The translations under genes and the position numbers were made by a program. This document shows positions 13,032 to 39,212 of a stretch of DNA of 64,000 nt, piece after piece. The stretch's first letter is position 1, and each line of letters opens with the position of its first letter. Origin of the DNA: a virus (taxonomy: Duplodnaviria; Caudoviricetes); the IMG/VR virus record IMGVR_UViG_3300031994_000011, positions 32,001 through 96,000 of that record. The stretch is one strand, 5' to 3'. The notes beneath the pieces are model-generated. The model ran no database searches. It was not told the origin of the DNA and worked only from the letters and a program-made list of their open reading frames with translations.

Positions 13032-13331
13032 ATGAAATACTATAGTGAAGTTACTAAGAAGTTCTACGATACAGCCGAAGCTTGTAATAAGGCAGAAGTA
13101 GAAATGGTTGAAAAGCAGAATGTTGAAAAGCTACGCAAAGAGAAGGAGGCCGCAGAACGTAAGGCTGCCGCGGACCAAGTAGAGGCCGCGAGAAAGGCTT
13201 ACGTTGAAGCGCATAAGAATTATAAAAAAGTTCTTACGGATTTTTGCGAAAAGTATGGACCTTATCATACTTCTCTGAATAAGAGTAATGCTGATGACTT
13301 TGATATTTTTGATATTTTCCACTGGCTATAA
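13032..13331 (+). CDS. Hypothetical coiled-coil protein
   Basis: ORF with strong RBS directly after a promoter. Confidence 0.8.
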   Translation: MKYYSEVTKKFYDTAEACNKAEVEMVEKQNVEKLRKEKEAAERKAAADQVEAARKAYVEAHKNYKKVLTDFCEKYGPYHTSLNKSNADDFDIFDIFHWL

Positions 13332-13356
13332 TAATAGGGCGCGTGAGCGCCCATGA

Positions 13357-13430
13357 CGGGGTATAGCGCAGTCTGGTAGCGCGTTCGGTTTGGGACCGAA
13401 ATGCCAGAGGTTCAAATCCTCTTACCCCGA
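13357..13430 (+). tRNA. tRNA-Pro(UGG)
   Basis: Cloverleaf CGGGGTA/TACCCCG; anticodon loop TT-TGG-GA. Confidence 0.95.
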
Positions 13431-13492
13431 TTATAAGTTAGCCCTTCAATTTTAAATTATATTTAAATCCTTACTTATTTGGGGCTAACTAT

Positions 13493-13565
13493 GGGGCATT
13501 AACTCAGTGGTGAGAGTGGCAGTCTTATAAACTGCTGGTCCTTGGTTCGAATCCAAGATGCCCTA
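13493..13565 (+). tRNA. tRNA-Ile(UAU)
   Basis: Cloverleaf; GCAGT-CT-TAT-AA-ACTGC. Confidence 0.9.
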
Positions 13566-13650
13566 CTAATTTTGAAACGAATTGTAAAATTCGTTTCTTT
13601 TTTATTTGACTAAAATTAAAATTTAGTATATAATATAAAGGGTGAAAGAA

Positions 13651-13998
13651 ATGAAAAACATTTTTATTTATGTAGATTATCTTAAAACCGATTATAGTTT
13701 TTCTAATGTAATCGCGCGCCATCTTAATCTATTAAATAATAATGAAACAATTGATGAAGTTTATATCGCACGCTCGTATAATAAAGCTATTGAATTACTT
13801 GAAACTTATAAAGGTGACAATATAATTATAGATTTAAGCTATAATCTATGTGAAGAAAAAACTGGGCTTGATATTTGTAAATACATTACAAAATTTAAAA
13901 TCCCAATATTATTCTTTCATATTCATTCGGTTGATTTAGAAAAACGTTTTGAAATGAGAGAAGAACTATCACAAAATGGATATAAGGAGTTTTCTTAA
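13651..13998 (+). CDS. Cyclic-phosphate-processing receiver-like domain protein
   Basis: IDLSYNL.E.KTGLDICKYI...FHIHS resembles that receiver family; adjacent to a phosphoesterase. Confidence 0.55.
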   Translation: MKNIFIYVDYLKTDYSFSNVIARHLNLLNNNETIDEVYIARSYNKAIELLETYKGDNIIIDLSYNLCEEKTGLDICKYITKFKIPILFFHIHSVDLEKRFEMREELSQNGYKEFS

Positions 13999-14588
13999 TG
14001 TATAATATTTATTTTACTTCAGACCTACATTTTGGGCATGATAAAGATTTTATGTATGTTCCTCGTGGCTTTTCTTTTATTGAGGAACACGATAACGCAA
14101 TTATTAAAAATTGGAATGAAACCGTGCGGCCGCAAGATTATGTATATATTTTAGGAGATTTAGTCCTTGGCGATTTAGATAAGGGACTAGAAAAATTAAA
14201 TAAACTTAATGGCGCAAAATATATGATTCGTGGCAATCATGACACAGAAAATAAACTTGATAGATATTACATTGAAACCGATATTATGCCTATGGAAAGC
14301 GATGAATATACACTAGCATCTACTTTTCAAATTGGAAAATGGAATTTTTATCTAAGTCATTATCCAGTATGCTTGAATGATTATCGTTGTGCTTCTAGTA
14401 GTAGGAAATGGTGCCTTTGCGGGCATAGTCATACTAAAAATAAATGGCAGGATATTGAAAGATGTAGCTATCATGTAGAATTAGATTGCCATGATAATAG
14501 ACCCGTCTCTCTTGATGAAATTAAAAAAGATATAAATTGGTTTAAAGCATTATCCGACGAAGAAAAAATTAAACTCATAAATAATTGA
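13998..14588 (+). CDS. Calcineurin-like metallophosphoesterase
   Basis: SDLHFGH, LGD, GNHD, SHYP and GHSH motifs. Confidence 0.9.
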   Translation: MYNIYFTSDLHFGHDKDFMYVPRGFSFIEEHDNAIIKNWNETVRPQDYVYILGDLVLGDLDKGLEKLNKLNGAKYMIRGNHDTENKLDRYYIETDIMPMESDEYTLASTFQIGKWNFYLSHYPVCLNDYRCASSSRKWCLCGHSHTKNKWQDIERCSYHVELDCHDNRPVSLDEIKKDINWFKALSDEEKIKLINN

Positions 14589-14636
14589 CTTATTTTTAAA
14601 ATTCTGCTATAATATATATGTAAGAAAGAAAAGGAG

Positions 14637-14861
14637 ATGAAAAAAATGTTCCACTATGAAGTAAGGTACTATGATGAAATTGATGGCGAAAACACTGTTG
14701 ATGAAGGAATTGTTTACGGTCAGGACATTGATGAAGCTGCGAAAGAAGTTAAATTTTATTATGGTCGCGTTAACGTAATTACTGTTTCCCTTACTCCTCT
14801 TGAAGATGAAAAAGTAATGTCTCTTTCGGCAATTAAGGAAGAATTTAAGATGGAGGGATAA
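14637..14861 (+). CDS. Hypothetical protein
   Basis: Promoter, RBS and ORF. Confidence 0.7.
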   Translation: MKKMFHYEVRYYDEIDGENTVDEGIVYGQDIDEAAKEVKFYYGRVNVITVSLTPLEDEKVMSLSAIKEEFKMEG

Positions 14862-15015
14862 TTATGAGGAAGCTAGTATTTTCATCTCGTTGGTCTAAAG
14901 TAAAGCAAGCACTTGAGGAAGATAACTGGCAGACTTACGCGCTTCGCACAAATTGCGGCCAAAGAATGCGCTACCGCTTGCTCGTATACAAACAAATATA
15001 AGAGAGGATAAATAA

Positions 15016-15663
15016 ATGAGAAAGTACGAAAAAATTGAAACTATCTATGCTCGGGATACTCAAGGAACGAAGAAACTGATTCCTGGTGAGTTTAGAGATG
15101 AAACTATTCATTCGCTTGCTAATATTAGGTGGATTTGGACTGAAAAAGTAGATGGCACGAATATTCGCATTTATTGGGATGGACATAAAATCAGTTTTGG
15201 TGGTCGGACTGACTCAGCAATGATTCCTAGTCCTCTCATGAATCGGCTTAATGAACTATTTGGCGGTACAGTAAATGAGGAAGTATTTGAACAAATCTTT
15301 GGTGAAAAAGAAGTGATTCTTTTTGGCGAAGGTTATGGTAACAAAATTCAAAAAGTTGGAAAAGACTACTTGCCCGATAGTGTAAACTTTATTTTGTTTG
15401 ATGTACTTATTGGAGATAACTATCAGCCTAGAGGAACTGTTGAAAAAATCGCGGCAGCTTTTAATGTTCCTGTTGTTCCTATTGTTGGATATGGTACTCT
15501 ATATGATGCAATCAGTTATGTAGAGGCCAATCCTAAGTCTATTGTGGCGCAAGAACGTTGTAGCATGGAAGGTATTGTATGCAGGCCTGAAATGGAATTG
15601 CGCGATAGGTGCGGCAATAGGATTATCGTAAAAATTAAGTGGGAAGATTTTAAAACAATTTAA
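15016..15663 (+). CDS. ATP-dependent RNA ligase, Rnl2-like
   Basis: Nucleotidyltransferase motifs EKVDGTN, FGEGYG, FILFDV, EGIV and IVKIK; no OB domain. Confidence 0.85.
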   Translation: MRKYEKIETIYARDTQGTKKLIPGEFRDETIHSLANIRWIWTEKVDGTNIRIYWDGHKISFGGRTDSAMIPSPLMNRLNELFGGTVNEEVFEQIFGEKEVILFGEGYGNKIQKVGKDYLPDSVNFILFDVLIGDNYQPRGTVEKIAAAFNVPVVPIVGYGTLYDAISYVEANPKSIVAQERCSMEGIVCRPEMELRDRCGNRIIVKIKWEDFKTI

Positions 15664-15677
15664 TATGAGGTGAGAGA

Positions 15678-15917
15678 ATGGCTTATCATCACATTAGAAG
15701 TTGGAGACGACATCAAGATTGGACTAAAGCCCTTCATAAGCGTGAAATGGACAGAGAAGTAAAACCTGGTTCTAAAGATACTTATGATAATTTACATCAG
15801 TATAGTAAAAATAAAATAGGCAATTCTTCCCAAAAAGAATCTTACTACGGTAAAAGAATCAATGAACGTAAACAATATGATAGTTTGACAGAGCAGGAAA
15901 AAACTTATACAATTTAA
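15678..15917 (+). CDS. Hypothetical basic protein
   Basis: RBS and ORF. Confidence 0.65.
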   Translation: MAYHHIRSWRRHQDWTKALHKREMDREVKPGSKDTYDNLHQYSKNKIGNSSQKESYYGKRINERKQYDSLTEQEKTYTI

Positions 15918-16090
15918 TAGAATTTATAGGCGCAGTACAGCAAATTCAGAACAATAAATTGGCTATTTATTTATTCGCGCGCCTAGTTATAAAATTCCGC
16001 TTTAGCGGAATTTTTTTATTTTTTCTCTTGACTTTCTTTTAAATTTCTGCTATAATATTTATGTAAGAAAGAGAAAGGAAGGTAAGAAAA

Positions 16091-16936
16091 ATGGCCGTTG
16101 CTAAATCTTATGAGAACATGGAACTGATGGGCCAGCCTTTTGAACGCAACAGTAAAATGTATGTTAAGGTTAAGAGCAAGTGCCCTCGCTGTGGTGGCTC
16201 TGGTCATTATTCTTACAACCAGATGGATGGCACCCGTTGCTATGGTTGCGGTGGAAGCGGCATTAAAGTAATGGAAGTGCGCTGGTATACTGATGCTCAG
16301 CGTGCCTCTATGGATAAGGCCGCTGAAAAACGCGCGGCTGAGCGAGTTGCTAAGCAGGAAGCTCGCCGCGTAAAATTTGCCGCGCGCAATGCTTTTGGTT
16401 TCGGTGAAAAAGGCTATATCACTCTTATTTGGGGTGATAATGAAGAAATTAAAAAATGGCGTGAAGATCTTCCTGAACATACTGTCTGGTATAATAATTT
16501 CTTTGGTTGGTTTATTCCCTCTAACCGTGAGTATGAAGGACTTGAAATTCCCGAAAATATTAAGCATGAGAAGTTTGATTGGGAAAAAATTCGTAATAAA
16601 GAAGACCCTGAGAACCTTGAAATGATTGATAACGAAGAAGTTAAAAAGATCGTTCAAGAAATTATTTATGAACCTAGTAAAAGCGAGTATCAGGGTGAGG
16701 TGGGTCAGTGGCTTGAAAAAGATGTAAAAATTACTAAGCGGCTTGCTTTTGAATCTAACTATGGCGTAAGTAACATGCATATTATGGAAGATGCCGATGA
16801 AAATGTGTATATCTGGAATACCAGTTCTAAGTCTCTAAATGAAAATCAAACTTATCATCTTAAAATGAAAGTTAAAGAGCACAAAGATTATCAGGGAACC
16901 AAACAGACTGTTGTATGGTATTGTAAAGTAAAATAA
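16091..16936 (+). CDS. Zinc-finger (CxxCGGxG twice) protein with probable C-terminal OB fold
   Basis: CPRCGGSG...CYGCGGSG; C-terminal VKEHKDYQGTKQT. Confidence 0.7.
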   Translation: MAVAKSYENMELMGQPFERNSKMYVKVKSKCPRCGGSGHYSYNQMDGTRCYGCGGSGIKVMEVRWYTDAQRASMDKAAEKRAAERVAKQEARRVKFAARNAFGFGEKGYITLIWGDNEEIKKWREDLPEHTVWYNNFFGWFIPSNREYEGLEIPENIKHEKFDWEKIRNKEDPENLEMIDNEEVKKIVQEIIYEPSKSEYQGEVGQWLEKDVKITKRLAFESNYGVSNMHIMEDADENVYIWNTSSKSLNENQTYHLKMKVKEHKDYQGTKQTVVWYCKVK

Positions 16937-16978
16937 TCCACAGCCTTGATAAAGGCCAAGATGAAAGGAGAATATTAT

Positions 16979-18517
16979 ATGAATGAACTTTTAAAGGCTC
17001 TTAAAGAAAATTTCAACACTACTCTTACTGAAAATGGCGCGACCACATATAAGTCTACACTTGATAGTGTATATGATATGTTCGCGCTGGGTGGCGCGTA
17101 TCGTGAACGCTCTGATGAAGATGTTATTATGCTTTTTAAAAAGGCATATCAGCAAGATCCTACGCTTGCTATGAAGTGTCTATTTTATCTTCGTGATGTA
17201 ACCGAAGGCCAAGGAGAAAGACGCTTTTTTAGAGTTATCATTAACTGGTTGGCGCGCACAATGCCAGAAGAAGCACTTAATTTCCTAAAGCAAATTCCAG
17301 AATATGGAAGATTTGATGACTTGTATTCACTTATTGGTGCTTCTATTGATGAGGATGTATTTCGTTTTATTAAATCTCAGTTAATTGCTGACCTACATAC
17401 TGATACACCTTCTCTACTTGCTAAGTGGCTAAAGTCAGAAAATGCTTCTTCTCCAGAAACTAAAAAGCTTGCTACAGAAACTAGGAAGCATCTAGGTCTT
17501 ACTTCTGCTCAGTATCGTCATATGCTTTCTATGCTTCGTAATAGAATAAAAATCGTTGAGACTCTTATGTCTCAAAATCGTTGGACTGAAATTGAATTTG
17601 ATAAAATTCCTAGCCGTGCTGGATTTATTTATCGTAAGGCATTTGCTCGTAATGAACTTATTGGCGATAAGTATGCCGAATTTATGAGTAAACCTAATAC
17701 TACGGTAAATGCGAGAACTCTTTATCCTTATGAAGTCGTTGAAAAAGCAGCTAAGCTAGCCAATGGTGGATGGGGTAGTCTTCCTTCTATTGATGATGTA
17801 GAAAGAATTACTATAAATAAATATTGGGACAATCTTACCGATTATTTCAATGGTGCTACTCTTAACGCACTTGCTGTGGTAGATACATCTGGCTCTATGT
17901 GGGGACAACCCATTAACGTAGCTATTTCTCTTGGCCTATATTGTGCGGATAAGGCAAATGGACCTTTTAAGAATCATTTTATTTCCTTTAGCCGCAATCC
18001 TAAACTAATTGAAACCGTAGGTGTAGATTTCTGTGATAAAGTTAATAGAATTTATCAGCAAAATTTGTGTGAAAATACTAACATTGAAAAAACTTTTGAT
18101 TTAATTCTAAATATCGCAAGAAAAAATAATTTATCACAAAAAGAACTACCTGAGTCTCTTATTATAATTAGCGATATGGAATTTGATGCAGCAATCAGTA
18201 ACTATGATTATTATAGAGAATCTAATGGGAATAGCAGCCTAATAGAGAATATTGAAAGAAAATGGAACGCGTTCGGATATAAAATGCCGAAACTGGTTTT
18301 TTGGAATGTTAATGCGCGCCATGATAATATTCCTATGAAAGAAAGAAATGGTATTACTTTTATATCTGGTTGTTCTCCTGTAATTTTTGATATGATTATG
18401 TCGGGAAAAACTGCTAAAGAACTCATGCTAGATAAACTACTATCTGATAGGTATGCTAAAATCTTTTCTGTAACTGATCATAAATATTTGCTATATAAAA
18501 ATCTTATAAATACTTGA
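16979..18517 (+). CDS. DUF2828-type (TROVE/Ro-like helical + vWA) protein
   Basis: TENGA, FYLRD...GQGERRFF, SLLAKW, DTSGSM (MIDAS), ISDMEFD and FWNV motifs. Confidence 0.85.
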   Translation: MNELLKALKENFNTTLTENGATTYKSTLDSVYDMFALGGAYRERSDEDVIMLFKKAYQQDPTLAMKCLFYLRDVTEGQGERRFFRVIINWLARTMPEEALNFLKQIPEYGRFDDLYSLIGASIDEDVFRFIKSQLIADLHTDTPSLLAKWLKSENASSPETKKLATETRKHLGLTSAQYRHMLSMLRNRIKIVETLMSQNRWTEIEFDKIPSRAGFIYRKAFARNELIGDKYAEFMSKPNTTVNARTLYPYEVVEKAAKLANGGWGSLPSIDDVERITINKYWDNLTDYFNGATLNALAVVDTSGSMWGQPINVAISLGLYCADKANGPFKNHFISFSRNPKLIETVGVDFCDKVNRIYQQNLCENTNIEKTFDLILNIARKNNLSQKELPESLIIISDMEFDAAISNYDYYRESNGNSSLIENIERKWNAFGYKMPKLVFWNVNARHDNIPMKERNGITFISGCSPVIFDMIMSGKTAKELMLDKLLSDRYAKIFSVTDHKYLLYKNLINT

Positions 18518-18542
18518 CTTTCTTTTAAATTTATAGTATAAT
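18514..18542 (+). promoter_or_regulatory. Sigma-A promoter directly upstream of the amber suppressor tRNA
   Basis: TTGACT-17-TATAAT. Confidence 0.85.
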
Positions 18543-18569
18543 AAAACAGTAAGGGGAGAAATCCCTTAT

Positions 18570-18642
18570 GGCGGTATCTTCTAGTGGTCTAGGAAAACGG
18601 TCTCTAAAACCGATAACCCGGGTCCGAATCCCGGTACCGCTA
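18570..18642 (+). tRNA. Amber suppressor tRNA(CUA) with a tRNA-Glu-like body
   Basis: Acceptor GGCGGTA/TACCGCT; D arm TTCT-AGTGGTCTA-GGAA; loop CT-CTA-AA (anticodon 18604-18606); 4-nt variable loop TAAC. Confidence 0.92.
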
Positions 18643-18646
18643 CTCT

Positions 18647-18756
18647 TAAGAGATGGCTGAATGGTTAAGGCAGCCTACCGAAGAGTAGGCGTAGGACGTT
18701 CGATTCGTCTTTAGGTTGAGGTAAACCATAGTGGGTTCGATTCCCACTTCTCTTAA
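18647..18756 (+). ncRNA. Atypical tRNA-Ser-like RNA with two T-arms and no clear anticodon
   Basis: Ser-type 5' end and terminal T-arm; an extra AGGACG-TTCGATT-CGTCTT hairpin lies in the anticodon region. Confidence 0.6.
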
Positions 18757-18759
18757 TAT

Positions 18760-18900
18760 TGGGGTGTAGCCAAATGGTAAGGCAACGGACTTATCAGGAT
18801 AGCATAACGCAATGCGCTCCGGCAGGAGAGAAGCGTGGGTCATAACCAGCTCCTGATGCAATGACTCCGTGATTTGCTGGTCCGATTCCAGCCACCCCAG
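18760..18900 (+). tRNA. tRNA-Gln(UUG) with a 69-nt tRNA-like insert (18793..18861)
   Basis: Removing the insert restores ACGGA-CT-TTG-AC-TCCGT; U1:A72 acceptor. Confidence 0.9.
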
Positions 18901-18923
18901 CTATTTTATTATTGGAGGCTAAT

Positions 18924-19364
18924 ATGCGTCAAATTATTATTGTTCGTAAAGATTTGAATATGAATTCCGGTAAACTTGCGGCACAGGTGGCGCATGCTTC
19001 CTTGGCTTTTATTTCTAATGCTATTCGTAATTGCGTAGAATGTTCAAGTTTAAGTCAAAATTATCTTATAAGTTTGAAAATTCCAAAAGATGTATACGAA
19101 CAGTGGTTCTGTGGAATATTTACTAAGACCGTTTGTGAAGCCAAAAATCACAGACAAATAATGAAAGCTATATCTATTGCCGAAGAGATTGGTCTTAAAG
19201 AAGGCACAGATTTTTTTCTCATTAAAGATGCTTGCCTTACAGATCTAGAACCAGAAGAAATCGATGAAAATGGGCAAGGCCGTACTCTTACTTGTATTGG
19301 TTTCAGGCCTCTTGACGATGAGACAGCTTGGAAAATTTCTAAAAAATTTCAACTGTATCACTGA
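18924..19364 (+). CDS. pth2: Peptidyl-tRNA hydrolase, Pth2 family
   Basis: QIIIVRKDLNMNSGKLAAQVAHAS, IKDACLT and TCIGFRP motifs. Confidence 0.9.
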   Translation: MRQIIIVRKDLNMNSGKLAAQVAHASLAFISNAIRNCVECSSLSQNYLISLKIPKDVYEQWFCGIFTKTVCEAKNHRQIMKAISIAEEIGLKEGTDFFLIKDACLTDLEPEEIDENGQGRTLTCIGFRPLDDETAWKISKKFQLYH

Positions 19365-19444
19365 TGCTATTAGTGCCCAAATCATGTCTCCATGATTTAC
19401 TGGTCCAGACTCAGCTTTGCAACTTTTTATTTTAGGAGGTAATT

Positions 19445-20017
19445 ATGGATCTTAATAGTGATGCTAATTATGACAATAAATTTTATGAAGTTTATCCTTC
19501 TCTTGAGGTGTCAGAAGAAGTAAAAAAAGAAAATAAACGTCTTTGTGATACTTATCCTTTTTTAATTCCTTCTAATCGTTTTAGTGGAAAGCGCATCAAC
19601 AGTGGTGAGGAAGGATACTGGCCAGGGACTCCAGAAGTAATGCCACAATGGGACTATGAATATACTGAATTAGATGAAATGCCAGACGGTTGGAGAAAAG
19701 CATTTGGAGAACAAATGTGTCAAGAGATAAAGCAAGCACTTCTTGATGTAGGTGAAGTTGGAGAAAAATTACTTGATAGATATAGAATAGTACAAATTAA
19801 AGAAAAATATGGATATTTGCGTTGGTATGATAATTTTTCTACTAATAAAATTCAAGGAATAATTCGTAAGTATGAAACCATTAGTCAATATACTTGTATA
19901 CATTGTGGCGCGCCCGCAACTAAAATTACTCGTGGATGGATTATGCCGGTTTGTGATGCTTGCGTTCCAGAGAATACTGACACTTTGCCTGTTAAAGAAT
20001 ATTGGGAGAATTGGTAA
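19445..20017 (+). CDS. Conserved phage hypothetical protein
   Basis: QIKEKYGYLRWY motif and a C-terminal CxxC pair. Confidence 0.7.
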   Translation: MDLNSDANYDNKFYEVYPSLEVSEEVKKENKRLCDTYPFLIPSNRFSGKRINSGEEGYWPGTPEVMPQWDYEYTELDEMPDGWRKAFGEQMCQEIKQALLDVGEVGEKLLDRYRIVQIKEKYGYLRWYDNFSTNKIQGIIRKYETISQYTCIHCGAPATKITRGWIMPVCDACVPENTDTLPVKEYWENW

Positions 20018-20088
20018 TGAAATTGTATACAAGTTATTGGGCACTGATAAAATAAAATCTTATATTGGTGAATTAAAGGAGAATTTAA

Positions 20089-20307
20089 ATGTATATAATT
20101 CCTTGTCCTAAATGTGGAAGAATGCCTAAAATTTATGAATGTATTCCAATAAAAGAGAAAAGACATAGAATAATTTGTTGTCCTAATCTTTGTTCTGTTA
20201 TCTCTACAAAAGAAAATGGATTTTTTAAATTTTATGTCACATATTTAGGAAATGGAGATGACAATACTCTTTTTAAAGAATGGAATAAAATGTTATCTAT
20301 TGACTAA
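20089..20307 (+). CDS. Small Cys-rich hypothetical protein
   Basis: CPKC; RBS. Confidence 0.6.
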   Translation: MYIIPCPKCGRMPKIYECIPIKEKRHRIICCPNLCSVISTKENGFFKFYVTYLGNGDDNTLFKEWNKMLSID

Positions 20308-20358
20308 TAATAAAAATTATATTATAATATATATGTAAGAAAGAGAAAGGAGAAAGAA

Positions 20359-20733
20359 ATGAAAATTATTGATTTTGAGCGTAAGGGCAATATAGTTCGT
20401 TTTTATCTTGGAGAAGACAGTCTTACTGAATGGTATGGCGATGATTGGGATGATGTGCCCTACGAGCATAATGCTGGAAGAGTTTATGATGAATTTATCT
20501 CCTCCTATAAAGATATAGCTTTTCCTTTTGATTTCACAGTGTTGGAACCTAAGAATGATTATCATTTCAATGGAAATTCTCCTTGGAGTAAAAAAGATAT
20601 GATTGCACGAAAAGTACCATGTATTATAGTAGCTCCAAAGGATGATGAATTCTGGGCAGATGAAAGTTTTATACTTTATGTTGCAAATGATAATGTTCAA
20701 AGATTTTACTTTGGCGATAAAATGGAACCTTAA
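20359..20733 (+). CDS. Hypothetical protein
   Basis: Promoter and RBS; WYGDDWDDVPYEHNAG. Confidence 0.75.
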   Translation: MKIIDFERKGNIVRFYLGEDSLTEWYGDDWDDVPYEHNAGRVYDEFISSYKDIAFPFDFTVLEPKNDYHFNGNSPWSKKDMIARKVPCIIVAPKDDEFWADESFILYVANDNVQRFYFGDKMEP

Positions 20734-20763
20734 TATTTAATATATAAAATATAGGAGAAAATT

Positions 20764-21315
20764 ATGAATAGTATGCTTAATGGAATGTTTGGAAAAATTG
20801 CCCCTGGCATGTGCCGTGTCTCTATGAATGGTGAAATTGCTATTAAAACCTCTAATGGTTATAAGACATATAATGTAGAAACTGGTACGCTAACTAATTG
20901 TGATAATTTCGCATTTGATATTGGTGAAGATTTCTTCTTCATTATCCCAACCAATAAAGTTCACAAGGGAGACATTATTCTCGCGGGCGGTAAACCTCGT
21001 TGCGTAATTGAAGCCGCGGCGAATGAAATTAAGACATTCTGCTATGAGGATGGTACTATTGGAACTATTGTTCCCGAACACCACATGTTTATGGGTAAGC
21101 AGTATTTCTATGGTAAGATTGTCTCGATGTTCGGTAATATGATGAGCGAAAAGGGTGGCATGAATAACATGATGAAGTATATGATGATGTCTGAAATGAT
21201 GAAAGGCAACAGCAATACTAATTCTATGCTACCAATGATGTTCATGATGAACGGCGGCCTTAACTTTGACGGAATTTTTGATATGGACGAAGAGAAAGAA
21301 AAGGAGGATAAGTAA
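20764..21315 (+). CDS. Hypothetical protein with Met-rich C-terminus
   Basis: RBS; first gene of a tightly coupled three-gene unit. Confidence 0.75.
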   Translation: MNSMLNGMFGKIAPGMCRVSMNGEIAIKTSNGYKTYNVETGTLTNCDNFAFDIGEDFFFIIPTNKVHKGDIILAGGKPRCVIEAAANEIKTFCYEDGTIGTIVPEHHMFMGKQYFYGKIVSMFGNMMSEKGGMNNMMKYMMMSEMMKGNSNTNSMLPMMFMMNGGLNFDGIFDMDEEKEKEDK

Positions 21316-21317
21316 GT

Positions 21318-22166
21318 ATGGGTGGCGGTACATGGACTACCACAGCTTATAATGCTAGTATCAAAAGCATGGGCTTCAAGAACGCAACCTCTGTAAGTTA
21401 TACTAGTAATATCCAGTCGATTTATAAAGAAAATCATCTACACCCTCTGCTGAATCCTTATGGAGTTACTCGTGAATGTCGCGACACGGAAGAGCATCCA
21501 GAAACAATTCCGGTTATTCTCGCGCTAGATGTTACTGGAAGCATGGGACGGGCAGCCGCAATGTGCGCGGGAAAACTAGATGAAGTAATGCAGGAACTTT
21601 ACTCAAAAGTAAAAGATGTAGAGTTTCTAATGATGGGCATTGGCGATTTGAGTTATGACGACGCGCCAATCCAGGCTTCACAATTTGAAAGCGACATCCG
21701 TATTCTAGACCAGACTACAAAGATTTATTTTGAAGGTGGTGGTGGCGGCAATTCGTTTGAATCCTATACTGCCGCTTGGTATTTTGGTCTACATAACACC
21801 GAGCTTGATTGTTGGAAACGTGGAAAGAAAGGTGTCATCATCACACTCGGTGATGAACCACTAAATCCATATCTTCCCGGTCATGATTTAAGTAAAGCAC
21901 TTGGATGCCCCGCACAGGATGTTAATACCCAAGAACTTTATAAAGAAGTCTGTGAAAAATTTGATGTATATCATATTGCTATTACCAATGAAAGTAGTTA
22001 TAGGCATTACGATGAAGAAATTAAGAACACTTGGGGCAAACTTCTAGGCCAACATTTAATCATCGCGTCTAGTGAAGAACTACCAAAGGTAATCGGTGAA
22101 ATTGTAGCAGAACATGAAAATGGCATTAGTACAATTAAGGTAACAGGGGAAGGAATTAGTTGGTAA
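21318..22166 (+). CDS. vWA-domain protein
   Basis: LALDVTGSMG (MIDAS), EGGGGGNSFESY and ITLGDE motifs. Confidence 0.85.
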   Translation: MGGGTWTTTAYNASIKSMGFKNATSVSYTSNIQSIYKENHLHPLLNPYGVTRECRDTEEHPETIPVILALDVTGSMGRAAAMCAGKLDEVMQELYSKVKDVEFLMMGIGDLSYDDAPIQASQFESDIRILDQTTKIYFEGGGGGNSFESYTAAWYFGLHNTELDCWKRGKKGVIITLGDEPLNPYLPGHDLSKALGCPAQDVNTQELYKEVCEKFDVYHIAITNESSYRHYDEEIKNTWGKLLGQHLIIASSEELPKVIGEIVAEHENGISTIKVTGEGISW

Positions 22167-22167
22167 T

Positions 22168-23244
22168 ATGGAAGTCAAAGTTGTAATTGGCAGTAACTAT
22201 GGCGATGAAGGCAAGGGACTAGTATCAGCAAATCTCGCGCGCGTGGCAAAGCAAGAAAATAAAAAAACTCTAACCGTATTCTATAATGGTACTACACAGA
22301 GAGCACATTCATTTGGAGATACAGTACGTCATTGTACCGCCGCTGGCGAAGGATTTGGTAGTGATACTTATTATCATCCTATGTTTGTAGTTGATCCAAT
22401 TGCACTTTGGCTTACCCAGTCTTATGTGTATATTGACCCAAATTGTCGTGTAATTCTACCTTGCGATGTTATGGACAATCGCAAGATAGAGAAAAGCCGC
22501 GGTGACAAGCGTCATGGCTCATGTGGATTAGGTCTATTCGCTGCGGTAAAACGCAGCAAAAAATTAGAAGATAATGTTGTAATTAATGATTTTCATAGTC
22601 CATATAATCTATATTTTAAATTAAAAGAAATTGAACGACGTCATCCAACAGAAAAAGATACGCTATATAATATTGATATGTTTATGCGGGCGGTCGCGTG
22701 GATTGTGAATAATTGTAGAATTATTACATTTGACAACTTGGTAAAAAATCATCAGTATGATACAATTATTTACGAAGGCGGACAAGGACTACTACTTGAC
22801 CAAACCAATATGGATGATTTTCCGCACTTAACTCCTTCCAGTGTAGGTATGTACAATATTACACATGATATTAATAAATTAAATTGTACGCCTGAACTAT
22901 TCTATGTTTCGCGCACTTATATGACACGACATGGCGCGGGCCCCATGGAATTTGAATGTAAAAAAGAAGATATTAATCCAAGCATTGTTGACAATATTAA
23001 TCAACCAAACGAATGGCAAGGCACTTTAAGATTTGGTTATATTGATTTAGAAACTCTTTATAAACGTATACAAAAAGATGCCGCGTTATATAATAATAAT
23101 TCAAATATTAATCTTGTTTTTACTCAATTAAATTACACTAATAATAAAATTGAAACAAATAAAGGCCGAGTAGATATTATTAAACCAAACTTTTGTTCAA
23201 AAATTTATGTTTCTACTGATAAATTTTATATATATAATATTTGA
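22168..23244 (+). CDS. purA: Adenylosuccinate synthetase-like protein
   Basis: IGSNYGDEGKG, HGSCGLG, YEGGQGLLLD, LTPS and TRHGAGP motifs. Confidence 0.8.
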   Translation: MEVKVVIGSNYGDEGKGLVSANLARVAKQENKKTLTVFYNGTTQRAHSFGDTVRHCTAAGEGFGSDTYYHPMFVVDPIALWLTQSYVYIDPNCRVILPCDVMDNRKIEKSRGDKRHGSCGLGLFAAVKRSKKLEDNVVINDFHSPYNLYFKLKEIERRHPTEKDTLYNIDMFMRAVAWIVNNCRIITFDNLVKNHQYDTIIYEGGQGLLLDQTNMDDFPHLTPSSVGMYNITHDINKLNCTPELFYVSRTYMTRHGAGPMEFECKKEDINPSIVDNINQPNEWQGTLRFGYIDLETLYKRIQKDAALYNNNSNINLVFTQLNYTNNKIETNKGRVDIIKPNFCSKIYVSTDKFYIYNI

Positions 23245-37369: not shown

Positions 37370-37981
37370 ATGGATTTAGATTTTTTAACTATACCTGAAT
37401 AGGTTAGTAGTTTAGACCCTGTAAAATTTCAATATTTTAATCAACTTTTTAATCATAGAACAATCATATTAAATCAAGAAATTAGCTAGAATCTCGTATA
37501 GACTGTTTATCTTCCTTTACGAGAATTTGAAACTGATTCTTGTACCGAGCCTATAACTTTAATATTAAATTCTATGGGAGGGTCCGTTTCTGACGGATTC
37601 TTTCTTGCTCATTATTTAACTACTTATTCAAAAGAACTAAATATTATAGTTACAGGTTGCGCGGCCAGTATGGGCGCTGTAATACTCTGCGGAGGTGGAA
37701 AAAATCCTAATGTTCATAGAATGTGCTTCCCAAGTACATATGGACTAATTCATGACGGGTATATTACATTATCTACTAATGAATCTAAAACTGCTTCAGA
37801 TATTATGGCATTTAATGATAAAGTTGATCTCCAAATTAGAGATTTTATTTTAAGTAACACAAATATTACAGCTGAGCAATACGATGCTCAAACACGCCAC
37901 CAATGGTTTCTGACAGCAGAAGAAATGAAAGAATTAAATCTGATTGATGAAATTATTGGAAGTGATAATAATGATAATTAA
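37370..37981 (+). CDS. clpP: ClpP-like protease
   Basis: LNSMGGSV, AASMG, LIHD and WFLTAEE..LIDEI motifs; 3 TAG. Confidence 0.85.
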
Positions 37982-39212
37982 TTTTTTAGATACCTCCGCT
38001 ATTTTAAATGGCGCGCTAACTACATATAAAAAAGATGCTTGTATAAGTTCTATTTCTTTAATGTAGTTATAGAATATAAAAACATCTGCTTTTAAAGACA
38101 ATCAAATTAAGTATCAAGCTAGATAGGCAGTTAGAGAAATCATTGATAATAATAATAATTTCTTTTTTCCTTCTTTCTCTCAAAGATAGATAGAAAAAAC
38201 TTTAAAAAAGTATAATTTTTTATCTAATATAAATGATCATTACATAATTTGTTAGGCCGCACTAATGGCAAAAAGTAGCGCATATTAGGTAAATTTTATT
38301 ACTTGCGATGGCGCGCAATACTTACTAGCAAAAAGAATACCTTCTTTAAATTCAATATATTATGATAAGATATTACTTGATAATTATGAAAATAATTAGT
38401 ATTGTGGCTGGGGTAAATATTATCCTAATGAAAAACAATTATAGGCGCTATATGCCGATCCTAAAATGAATATTTTAAATTGTAAAACCAATGAATATGC
38501 TTAGATTTATTATTAGAATAAATTACAAGATGTTCTTAGATGGTCTGGAAAAGAATACGAACCGTTAAAATATAAGGACATTAAGAGTCGTTTTTTAAAT
38601 GAAACAATTAAGCCATTAAATTTGTAGCAAAAAATGGCTTTTGATTTATTACAAAATAATTAGATTCCTGTAAAATTATTGCCAGGCGCAGTAGGAACAG
38701 GTAAAGATTATCTTATGCTTACTCACGCGCTTGATTTGGTTCAAAGAGGAACTATGAATAAAATTATTTTTGTAAGAAACCTTGTTCCTTTTAAAGATGC
38801 ACCATAGATAGGATATCTTGCTGGTAATTTACAAGAAAAAATTGCTTGGGGCATGGGGCCGCTAGCATCAATTCTTGGTGCTGCAGGATTATAGGAAATG
38901 TAGGCTCAGGATATGATTGAAGCAGTAAACCTTGGCTTTATCAGAGGTATGTCATGGGATAAAACAATTATATATGTTTCTTAGGGTCAAAATATAACTG
39001 GCGGCGGCTACAAGTTATTAGTCAGCAGATGCGGAGAAGGAAGTCAATTATGGGTAAATGGCGATATTCTTCAAACAGATGCTAAACGTTTTTAGGAAAA
39101 TAATGGTATTGATAGATTAATTAAATCACTTAGTGGCGATCCACTATTTGGAATGGTTAAATTAATAAAAACAGAACGTTCTAAAACAGCAGAACTAGCT
39201 TCTAAAATTTAA
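37971..39212 (+). CDS. phoH: PIN-PhoH (PhoH2-type) protein, TAG-rich
   Basis: FLDTS PIN start; GAVGTGKD; IGYLAG; FIRGMSW; YVS*GQN; GDILQTD. Confidence 0.9.

Follow-up and report, generated by a model that had tools for sequence, protein, structure and literature searches.

Which amino acid does a phage insert at its in-frame TAG codons when it brings its own amber-reading tRNA? The question is raised by a tRNA gene with anticodon CUA (tRNA-CUA) in the IMG/VR virus record IMGVR_UViG_3300031994_000011 (Duplodnaviria; Caudoviricetes). The record is 171,958 bp long with 34% G+C, has direct terminal repeats and is rated 100% complete by CheckV. The window analyzed here is the stretch of 64,000 nucleotides at bases 32001-96000 of that record. 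A first-pass annotation, made from the letters of the window alone, proposed that tRNA-CUA carries the identity elements of tRNA-Glu and offers a mechanism by which TAG encodes Glu. The proposal stands. The tRNA has a Glu-type body, the features that set tRNA-Gln apart are missing from it, and TAG is found at Glu positions; its charging with Glu is presumed. We consider it highly probable that tRNA-CUA is a functional amber suppressor that descended from a bacterial tRNA-Glu(CUC) by replacement of C36 with A and that decodes TAG as Glu. It is also likely that the phage represents a lineage of large gut phages with TAG=Glu, a code unrecorded for a virus or prokaryote, and that this code arose by a one-base change in a captured tRNA-Glu(CUC) whose native features already protect it from both GatCAB and GlnRS. 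On the simplest history, a tRNA-Glu(CUC) was captured and its C36 was changed to A afterwards.

An amber tRNA and its glutamate-type body

tRNA genes were called with ARAGORN and with the Rfam tRNA covariance model (gathering score 29). ARAGORN finds a single tRNA with a CUA anticodon in the whole genome, at 18570-18643 of the window. The Rfam model scores it at 55.3 bits (E 2e-11) as a canonical cloverleaf of 73 nucleotides (18570-18642). In the covariance-model alignment, the acceptor stem GGCGGUA/UACCGCU starts with G1.U72, G2-C71 and C3-G70 and is followed by A73. The D stem UUCU/GGAA is formed by U10-A25, U11-A24, C12-G23 and U13.G22. The D loop AGUGGUcuA has 9 nucleotides, where "cu" is the inserted 20a/20b, and the variable loop UAAC has 4, with A46 present and position 47 missing. 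The anticodon stem is ACGGU/ACCGA with the loop CUCUAAA, and the T arm reads CCGGG-UCCGAAU-CCCGG. ARAGORN and the Rfam alignment agree in every detail with the anticodon, D stem, variable loop and G1.U72 first described. A plain minimum-free-energy fold favors a 6-bp D hairpin instead; the canonical D-stem register is preferred because of the homology to tRNA-Glu. ARAGORN names the gene tRNA-Pyl. This label was rejected, since by naming convention "Pyl" is given to any CUA anticodon. The body of tRNA-Pyl, with its 3-nucleotide variable loop, short D loop and long anticodon stem, is also not matched by a tRNA with a 9-nucleotide D loop and a 4-nucleotide variable loop.

Searches of bacterial genomes place this body with tRNA-Glu. 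A pattern that fixed the D arm as UCUAG.GG...AGGA, the base U33 and the variable loop as UAAC, added a loose T loop and left the anticodon free was scanned over 120 stretches of bacterial genomes, one genome per species. It gave at least 159 matches, and among the matches listed the anticodon was that of Glu in 159 of 159 (132 UUC and 27 CUC). The variable loop UAAC is shared by all 159 as part of the search pattern; it is found in most Bacillota tRNA-Glu too. The whole tRNA-CUA was also compared by BLAST with 401 complete Bacillota genomes, where any isotype could match. Matches at E<0.01 were tRNA-Glu genes only. The best of them has an E value of 3e-9 and 80% identity over nucleotides 7-66, and for the next isotypes (Gly, Asp) a 15-nucleotide T-arm stretch alone matches. 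BLAST against E. coli genomes gave no match, and against the phage collection it gave weak matches only, with the exception of LR756500.1.

The closest likeness is to the tRNA-Glu(CUC) of the Bacillota/Actinobacteria type. The 15-nucleotide D arm, UCUAGUGGUCUAGGA, recurs unchanged in Bacillota tRNA-Glu(CUC) at four loci (L140, L141, L153 and L154; L-numbers denote loci). This arm includes U11-A24, C12-G23 and U13.G22 as well as the supernumerary D-loop nucleotides. The bacterial and phage tRNAs also have in common the acceptor end (G1.U72, G2-C71, C3-G70 and A73), the bases C32, U33, C34, U35, A37 and A38, and the variable loop UAAC, in which A46 is present and 47 absent. Within the anticodon loop, CUCUAAA in the phage and CUCUCAA in tRNA-Glu(CUC), position 36 alone differs (C to A), so UAG is read instead of GAG. 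Other differences are U10-A25 for G10-C25, A27.A43, C55, the absence of an encoded CCA, and that the gene is borne by a phage. The anticodon is not the YUC of tRNA-Glu, although C34, U35 and A37 are kept. Because it is CUA, with C36 replaced by A, the tRNA is a derivative of tRNA-Glu and not a tRNA-Glu by its decoding.

The first-pass annotation took G1.U72 as a way to escape transamidation. It is correct that tRNA-CUA lacks the features of a GatCAB substrate, but this is not a device of the phage. Among the matches listed, G1.U72 together with A73 is found in 19 of 27 tRNA-Glu(CUC) and in 8 of 131 tRNA-Glu(UUC). This acceptor end, more frequent than any other in tRNA-Glu(CUC), was inherited rather than invented by the phage. 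The D-stem elements, which had been put forward as Glu identity, likewise tell less than was supposed. They mark a GluRS substrate, but the Bacillota tRNA-Gln(CUG) genes that lie beside tRNA-Glu also have U11-A24, U13.G22 and a 4-nucleotide variable loop. As these elements are common to Glu and Gln tRNAs, the final amino acid is not decided by the D stem. Such sharing is expected where a single GluRS serves both tRNAs.

Bacillota tRNA-Gln(CUG) has U1-A72, G73 and a D loop of 7 nucleotides. Judged by sequence comparison, the discriminators between Glu and Gln are the 1:72 pair, base 73 and the size of the D loop (9 vs 7 nucleotides), and tRNA-CUA is Glu-like at all three. The marks of the Gln type, U1-A72 or a weak 1:72 pair together with G73, are replaced in it by G1.U72 and A73. 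The suppressors of phAss-1, a code-15 phage, have U1 or A1, G73 and a short D loop. An internal contrast is provided by the phage's own tRNA-Gln(UUG), in which the U1-A72 pair first noticed by eye is confirmed by the Rfam alignment, along with G73 and C11-G24. With the tRNA-Gln of the indirect pathway, which depends on a GluRS of the non-discriminating kind (ND-GluRS) and GatCAB, tRNA-CUA shares the D-stem GluRS elements and the 4-nucleotide variable loop, whereas it is without the U1-A72, G73 and 7-nucleotide D loop of the GatCAB substrate. It thus appears to have no Gln determinants for either the direct or the indirect route. As the tRNA that reads TAG has the body of tRNA-Glu, TAG would mean Glu, not Gln, in this phage.

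Orthologues of tRNA-CUA are present in relatives of the phage. The relatives used here are L213 (on a 163.5-kb contig), L214, L011 (95%-related), L010 and G404. The exact tRNA pattern had no match in viral contigs, and a looser pattern found two orthologues, in the diverged IMG/VR relatives L213 and L214 (~85% identical). These two, the window tRNA and the tRNA-CUA of LR756500.1 were aligned and scored for covariation against 500 shuffles. Both partners have changed in six pairs of the anticodon and T stems, and G1.U72, G2-C71, C3-G70, U11-A24, C12-G23 and U13.G22 are invariant wherever the four tRNAs align. The covariation score is above that of 500/500 shuffles, and tRNA-CUA appears to be under selection. 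In L011 the gene is interrupted after nucleotide 37/38 by an insert of 774 nucleotides (L011:11631-12404), nearly all of which is an open reading frame (ORF) for a PDDEXK_5 nuclease-like protein.

The tRNA-CUA of LR756500.1, a 462-kb phage (L009:294-362), is Glu-like and 69 nucleotides long. It has G1.U72, A73, the variable loop UAAC and an anticodon arm as in the window tRNA, but its D arm is shortened. The 160 kb of LR756500.1 that were sampled showed no TAG-recoded ORFs, and its PhoH gene is without stops, so that phage adds no support. A different amber tRNA is found in L013 and L014 (L013:2507-2597 and L014:5030-5118). It has 89-91 nucleotides, a long variable arm, A1.C72 and G73. L013 and L014 are more distant relatives, with about 61% identity in the DUF2828 protein, and the meaning of TAG may differ in such sister lineages. 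Three further relatives found via the DUF2828 gene (L007, L008 and L012) have no tRNA-CUA near that gene.

The meaning of in-frame TAG

Reading through TAG opens ORFs of 1771, 799 and 422 codons in the window and of 2545 and 6244 codons outside it. The 27 recoded ORFs contain about 630 in-frame TAG, which is 2.9% of their codons, and TAG ends none (0/28) of the long TAG-free genes. A column was counted as conserved when 80% or more of the homologues agree. Over PhoH, a helicase and TerL together, TAG falls on 17 such columns with Glu, 1 with Gln and 1 with Arg.

In the PhoH-like ATPase, positions 41, 43, 228, 288, 347 and 384 are TAG in the phage, and between 111 and 119 of 120 homologues have Glu there. 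The Walker B residue is at position 347. It is Glu in 24/24 PhoH proteins of standard-code bacteria, which are distant (about 30% identity) and informative at the Walker B site alone. The nearest PhoH in the databases is 94% identical and has Q at 17/17 TAG sites. This Q is a translation artefact, because the DNA of that gene has TAG at these sites and its translation matches the database record only with TAG=Q. Other proteins of relatives were also translated with TAG=Q, among them P0002, P0003, P0006 and P0242, and have Gln at catalytic Glu positions. The helicase has 25 TAG, and its conserved columns are 9 Glu, 1 Gln and 1 Arg. In TerL, TAG stands at the Walker B Glu (Glu in 66/67) and at another site that is Glu in 62/67. 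The TerL ORF (genome 148179-149237, minus strand, L005) has 352 codons and covers the ATPase part alone, and the G404 orthologue is one ORF of 625 codons; this phage may have a split or interrupted gene. Most structural proteins had no match in the Pfam search.

Codon swaps between relatives point in the same direction. Where one genome has TAG and the other a sense codon, comparison with L010 and L011 gives GAA/GAG 11 times and CAA once. Comparison with G404, which keeps an orthologous tRNA, gives GAA/GAG 19 times and CAA/CAG 5 times. G404 uses TAG as well: its helicase has 15, and its 625-aa TerL ORF has 16, of which 7 lie within the portion that was matched. The amino acid composition was also compared. 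Glu makes up 7.7% of residues in TAG-free genes and 5.4% in TAG-rich genes, 2.3 points lower, and Gln rises.

By its gene blocks, the genome appears to be divided into an early standard-code part and a late recoded part, and the suppressor lies in the TAG-free part. It sits within the TAG-free block 13032-23244 as the first gene downstream of a promoter of early type. The consensus promoter that the first-pass annotation placed just upstream is indeed there (Table 1). Exact TTGACT-N17-TATAAT occurs at 18 sites in the window (12886-62634), all on the plus strand, against 0.11 expected. All 18 sites are in TAG-free gene blocks and none precedes a TAG-rich block. This fits an early promoter class that would be used by host RNA polymerase. 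Between promoter and tRNA is a leader hairpin with a 6-pair stem, which is also flagged by a terminator scan on the opposite strand and is kept in the relative L011. It is presumably cut off by RNase P.

Charging, host and competing explanations

A domain search of the complete genome found neither a class Ic synthetase (GluRS/GlnRS) nor a release factor, and the suggestion that a phage GluRS or release factor might be encoded elsewhere is not borne out. As the phage has no GluRS or GlnRS, host enzymes must act on tRNA-CUA. The biochemical premises of the first-pass annotation agree with the literature. Among the major determinants for E. coli GluRS are U11-A24, U13-G22:A46 and the lack of 47 (PMC9976931). 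Bacterial GatCAB requires U1-A72 and rejects tRNA-Glu via an extra D-loop base (PMC2811023). A non-discriminating GluRS alone is found in many Firmicutes, 18/28 of those surveyed (PMC3927822).

The tRNA could then work as follows. Host RNA polymerase would transcribe tRNA-CUA early, from the consensus promoter in the TAG-free part, and RNase P and the host CCA-adding enzyme would process the transcript. Host GluRS would load Glu, guided by the D helix (U11-A24 and U13.G22..A46, with no 47) and by A37, C34 and U35, which are kept. The Glu would not be converted to Gln and the tRNA would not be taken up by GlnRS, as it has G1.U72 and A73 in place of U1-A72 and G73. Further barriers to GatCAB and GlnRS may be U10 and C3-G70 in place of G10 and G3-C70, and the Glu-type D loop with its extra nucleotides. 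The Glu-tRNA(CUA) would decode the approximately 630 in-frame TAG as Glu in late, structural and other recoded genes. Two of these steps, the charging of tRNA-CUA by host GluRS and the outcompetition of RF1, are ones that we infer. The host itself is probably Gram-positive, as suggested by the sigma-70 host-type promoters and by a relative's r1t-type holin; B. subtilis is a guess. Five Bacillota genomes were picked for having the most similar tRNA-Glu(CUC). GatB is present in 3/5, two of which have a single GluRS-type enzyme, and the remaining 2/5 have no GatB and a second enzyme of GlnRS size.

Several points weigh against decoding of TAG as Glu by this tRNA. Within the gene, the anticodon stem has the A27.A43 mismatch, position 55 is C, and CCA is not encoded. 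The D loop has 8 rather than 9 nucleotides in L213 and L214, so the extra-base antideterminant is incompletely conserved. Non-discriminating GluRS tolerates C or G at position 36. It is plausible, from this tolerance, that the enzyme would also accept A36, but C36, the changed base, is a strong determinant for E. coli GluRS (PMC9976931). As the five Bacillota genomes split, either route to Gln-tRNA is possible in the host. No recognized anti-RF1 function that would remove RF1 was found in the phage, and the ORF of 6244 codons needs almost total suppression. This ORF has 195 in-frame TAG (genome 117298-136032, minus strand, L004) and adjoins the 2545-codon ORF, which has 96. In the helicase, column 148 is Gln in 104/120 homologues, and some of these Gln may be TAG translated by code 15.

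The dependence of E. coli GluRS on C36 is also the main ground for a reading of TAG that is ambiguous: mainly Glu, with a sizeable share of Gln or Lys, where the altered anticodon weakens recognition by GluRS and TAG sites become statistical mixtures. Mischarging with Gln or Lys occurs in amber suppressors derived from several tRNAs of E. coli, and Lys and Gln are the next commonest residues in some TAG columns. The number of TAG, about 630 with 195 of them in one ORF, and their presence at catalytic Glu sites speak for accuracy, as do the identity elements conserved in diverged orthologues, and we regard such mixed decoding as unlikely.

A Gln meaning of TAG, with tRNA-CUA as a code-15 suppressor of the ordinary kind, is very improbable. 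Gln could be attached by GlnRS, for which CUA is the classic target, or by ND-GluRS followed by GatCAB. It is the meaning assigned in all published recoded phages with sense TAG and the one used by public protein collections for this lineage; one helicase column is mostly Q, and 6 swaps are with CAA/CAG. Swaps with GAA/GAG exceed these by 30 vs 6, and TAG stands at invariant catalytic Glu sites (Walker B of PhoH and TerL), where Gln is a classic ATPase-dead substitution. Late proteins would be 6.6% Gln vs 2.9% in early ones. The tRNA itself argues against Gln too, as it is without U1-A72, G73, G10 and a short D loop and has the D-loop insert that GatCAB rejects.

The idea that the host already reads TAG as Glu, with the phage tRNA topping up the supply and imposing no change of code, has very little chance of being right, because the early blocks with host-type promoters are strictly TAG-free, as is the pattern in phages that do not share their host's code, the recoded genes are without such promoters, and the pattern of a Glu-type CUA tRNA was not found in the 401 sampled Bacillota genomes.

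Neighboring features and known systems

Table 1. Features of the tRNA-CUA locus, and the PhoH-like gene, in window coordinates
Feature	Position	Strand	Remarks
Sigma-70/sigma-A type promoter TTGACT-17-TATAAT	18514..18542	+	11/12 matches to consensus; serves the tRNA cluster
Leader hairpin UAAGGGGAGAAAUCCCUUA	18550..18568	+	19 nucleotides, one base upstream of tRNA-CUA; read from the sequence
tRNA(CUA), predicted amber suppressor with tRNA-Glu(CUC) body	18570..18642	+	anticodon 18604-18606; discriminator A73 at 18642; ARAGORN, Rfam
tRNA-like element, doubtful as a tRNA	18648..18755	+	same transcription unit; Rfam tRNA 24.7 bits, below gathering score 29
tRNA-Gln(UUG)	about 18760..18900	+	Rfam 50.3 bits; 72-nucleotide insert in anticodon loop
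PTH2-type peptidyl-tRNA hydrolase	18912..19364	+	PF01981, E 1.1e-20; TAG-free; adjoins the tRNA cluster
PhoH-like ATPase	37944..39212	+	17 in-frame TAG; Walker B TAG at 38982-38984

The tRNA-like element that follows tRNA-CUA is called "Lys ctt" with a 27-nucleotide insert by ARAGORN when introns are allowed. Its D and T arms are normal, and a stretch of 34 nucleotides replaces the anticodon loop. Inserts of 45-75 nucleotides in the anticodon loop are present in four phage tRNAs (Gln; Gln or Lys; Ala or Thr; Leu), at about 18760-18900, 23951-24100, 28815-28932 and 30100-30233. Genes for an RNA ligase and a phosphoesterase lie nearby, and the literature mentions introns in the tRNAs of recoded phages. 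The tRNA cluster is surrounded by RNA-handling genes (13998-19364), including a metallophosphoesterase (13998-14588), an RNA ligase (15016-15663) and the PTH2 hydrolase, which are TAG-free. A DUF2828/DUF7788 protein (16946-18517), also TAG-free, is described as RNA-binding or vWA-like in some phage records. The T loop UCCGAnU, with C at the position where U is near-universal (55), is found in three phage tRNAs: CUA (18623-18629), Gln (18875-18881) and Gly (24441-24447). That T loop is also found in one Bacillota tRNA-Glu(CUC), L165, and the L011 orthologue has the normal UUCGAAC. Elsewhere in the window, 25281-25386 matches the Rfam DUF3800-I RNA with 57.3 bits, where the gathering score is 44.2.

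The default annotation of recoded phages is TAG=Gln; in this phage both the tRNA and the codon alignments point to Glu. The known phage codes would gain a further amino-acid assignment, reached by a very short evolutionary route of one base in tRNA-Glu(CUC). If true, every TAG of such phages stands as Gln in public protein sets translated by code 15, catalytic Glu sites included. Systematic mistranslation of this kind in databases is exposed by the 94%-identical PhoH with Q at its 17 TAG sites. If true, the body type of the suppressor tRNA could also predict the code of other recoded phages. For Gram-positive systems, tRNA-CUA may be a natural and apparently efficient amber-to-Glu suppressor.

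Full-text searches of the literature found no paper that describes TAG=Glu in a phage or bacterium. In the nuclear code of some ciliates, UAG, or UAA and UAG, encodes Glu, as in the peritrichs (NCBI table 30). The phyllopharyngean ciliates (PMC11687900) are another such case. The codon assignment is the same, but these are eukaryotic nuclear genomes with other tRNAs, synthetases and release factor, and there is no evolutionary link between the ciliate codes and TAG=Glu in the phage. The closest known systems are the code-15 phages, which include the crAss-like phages, phAss-1 and the clades of Borges et al., whose survey reports TAG-to-Gln and TGA-to-Trp alone in phages with a code unlike that of the host. 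Like them, the phage described here has an amber suppressor of its own, no phage synthetase, TAG-free early genes, TAG-rich late genes and insert-bearing tRNA genes. Their suppressors are of the Gln type (assigned to Gln by tRNAscan) and their TAG aligns with Gln, whereas here the suppressor is of the Glu type and TAG aligns with Glu.

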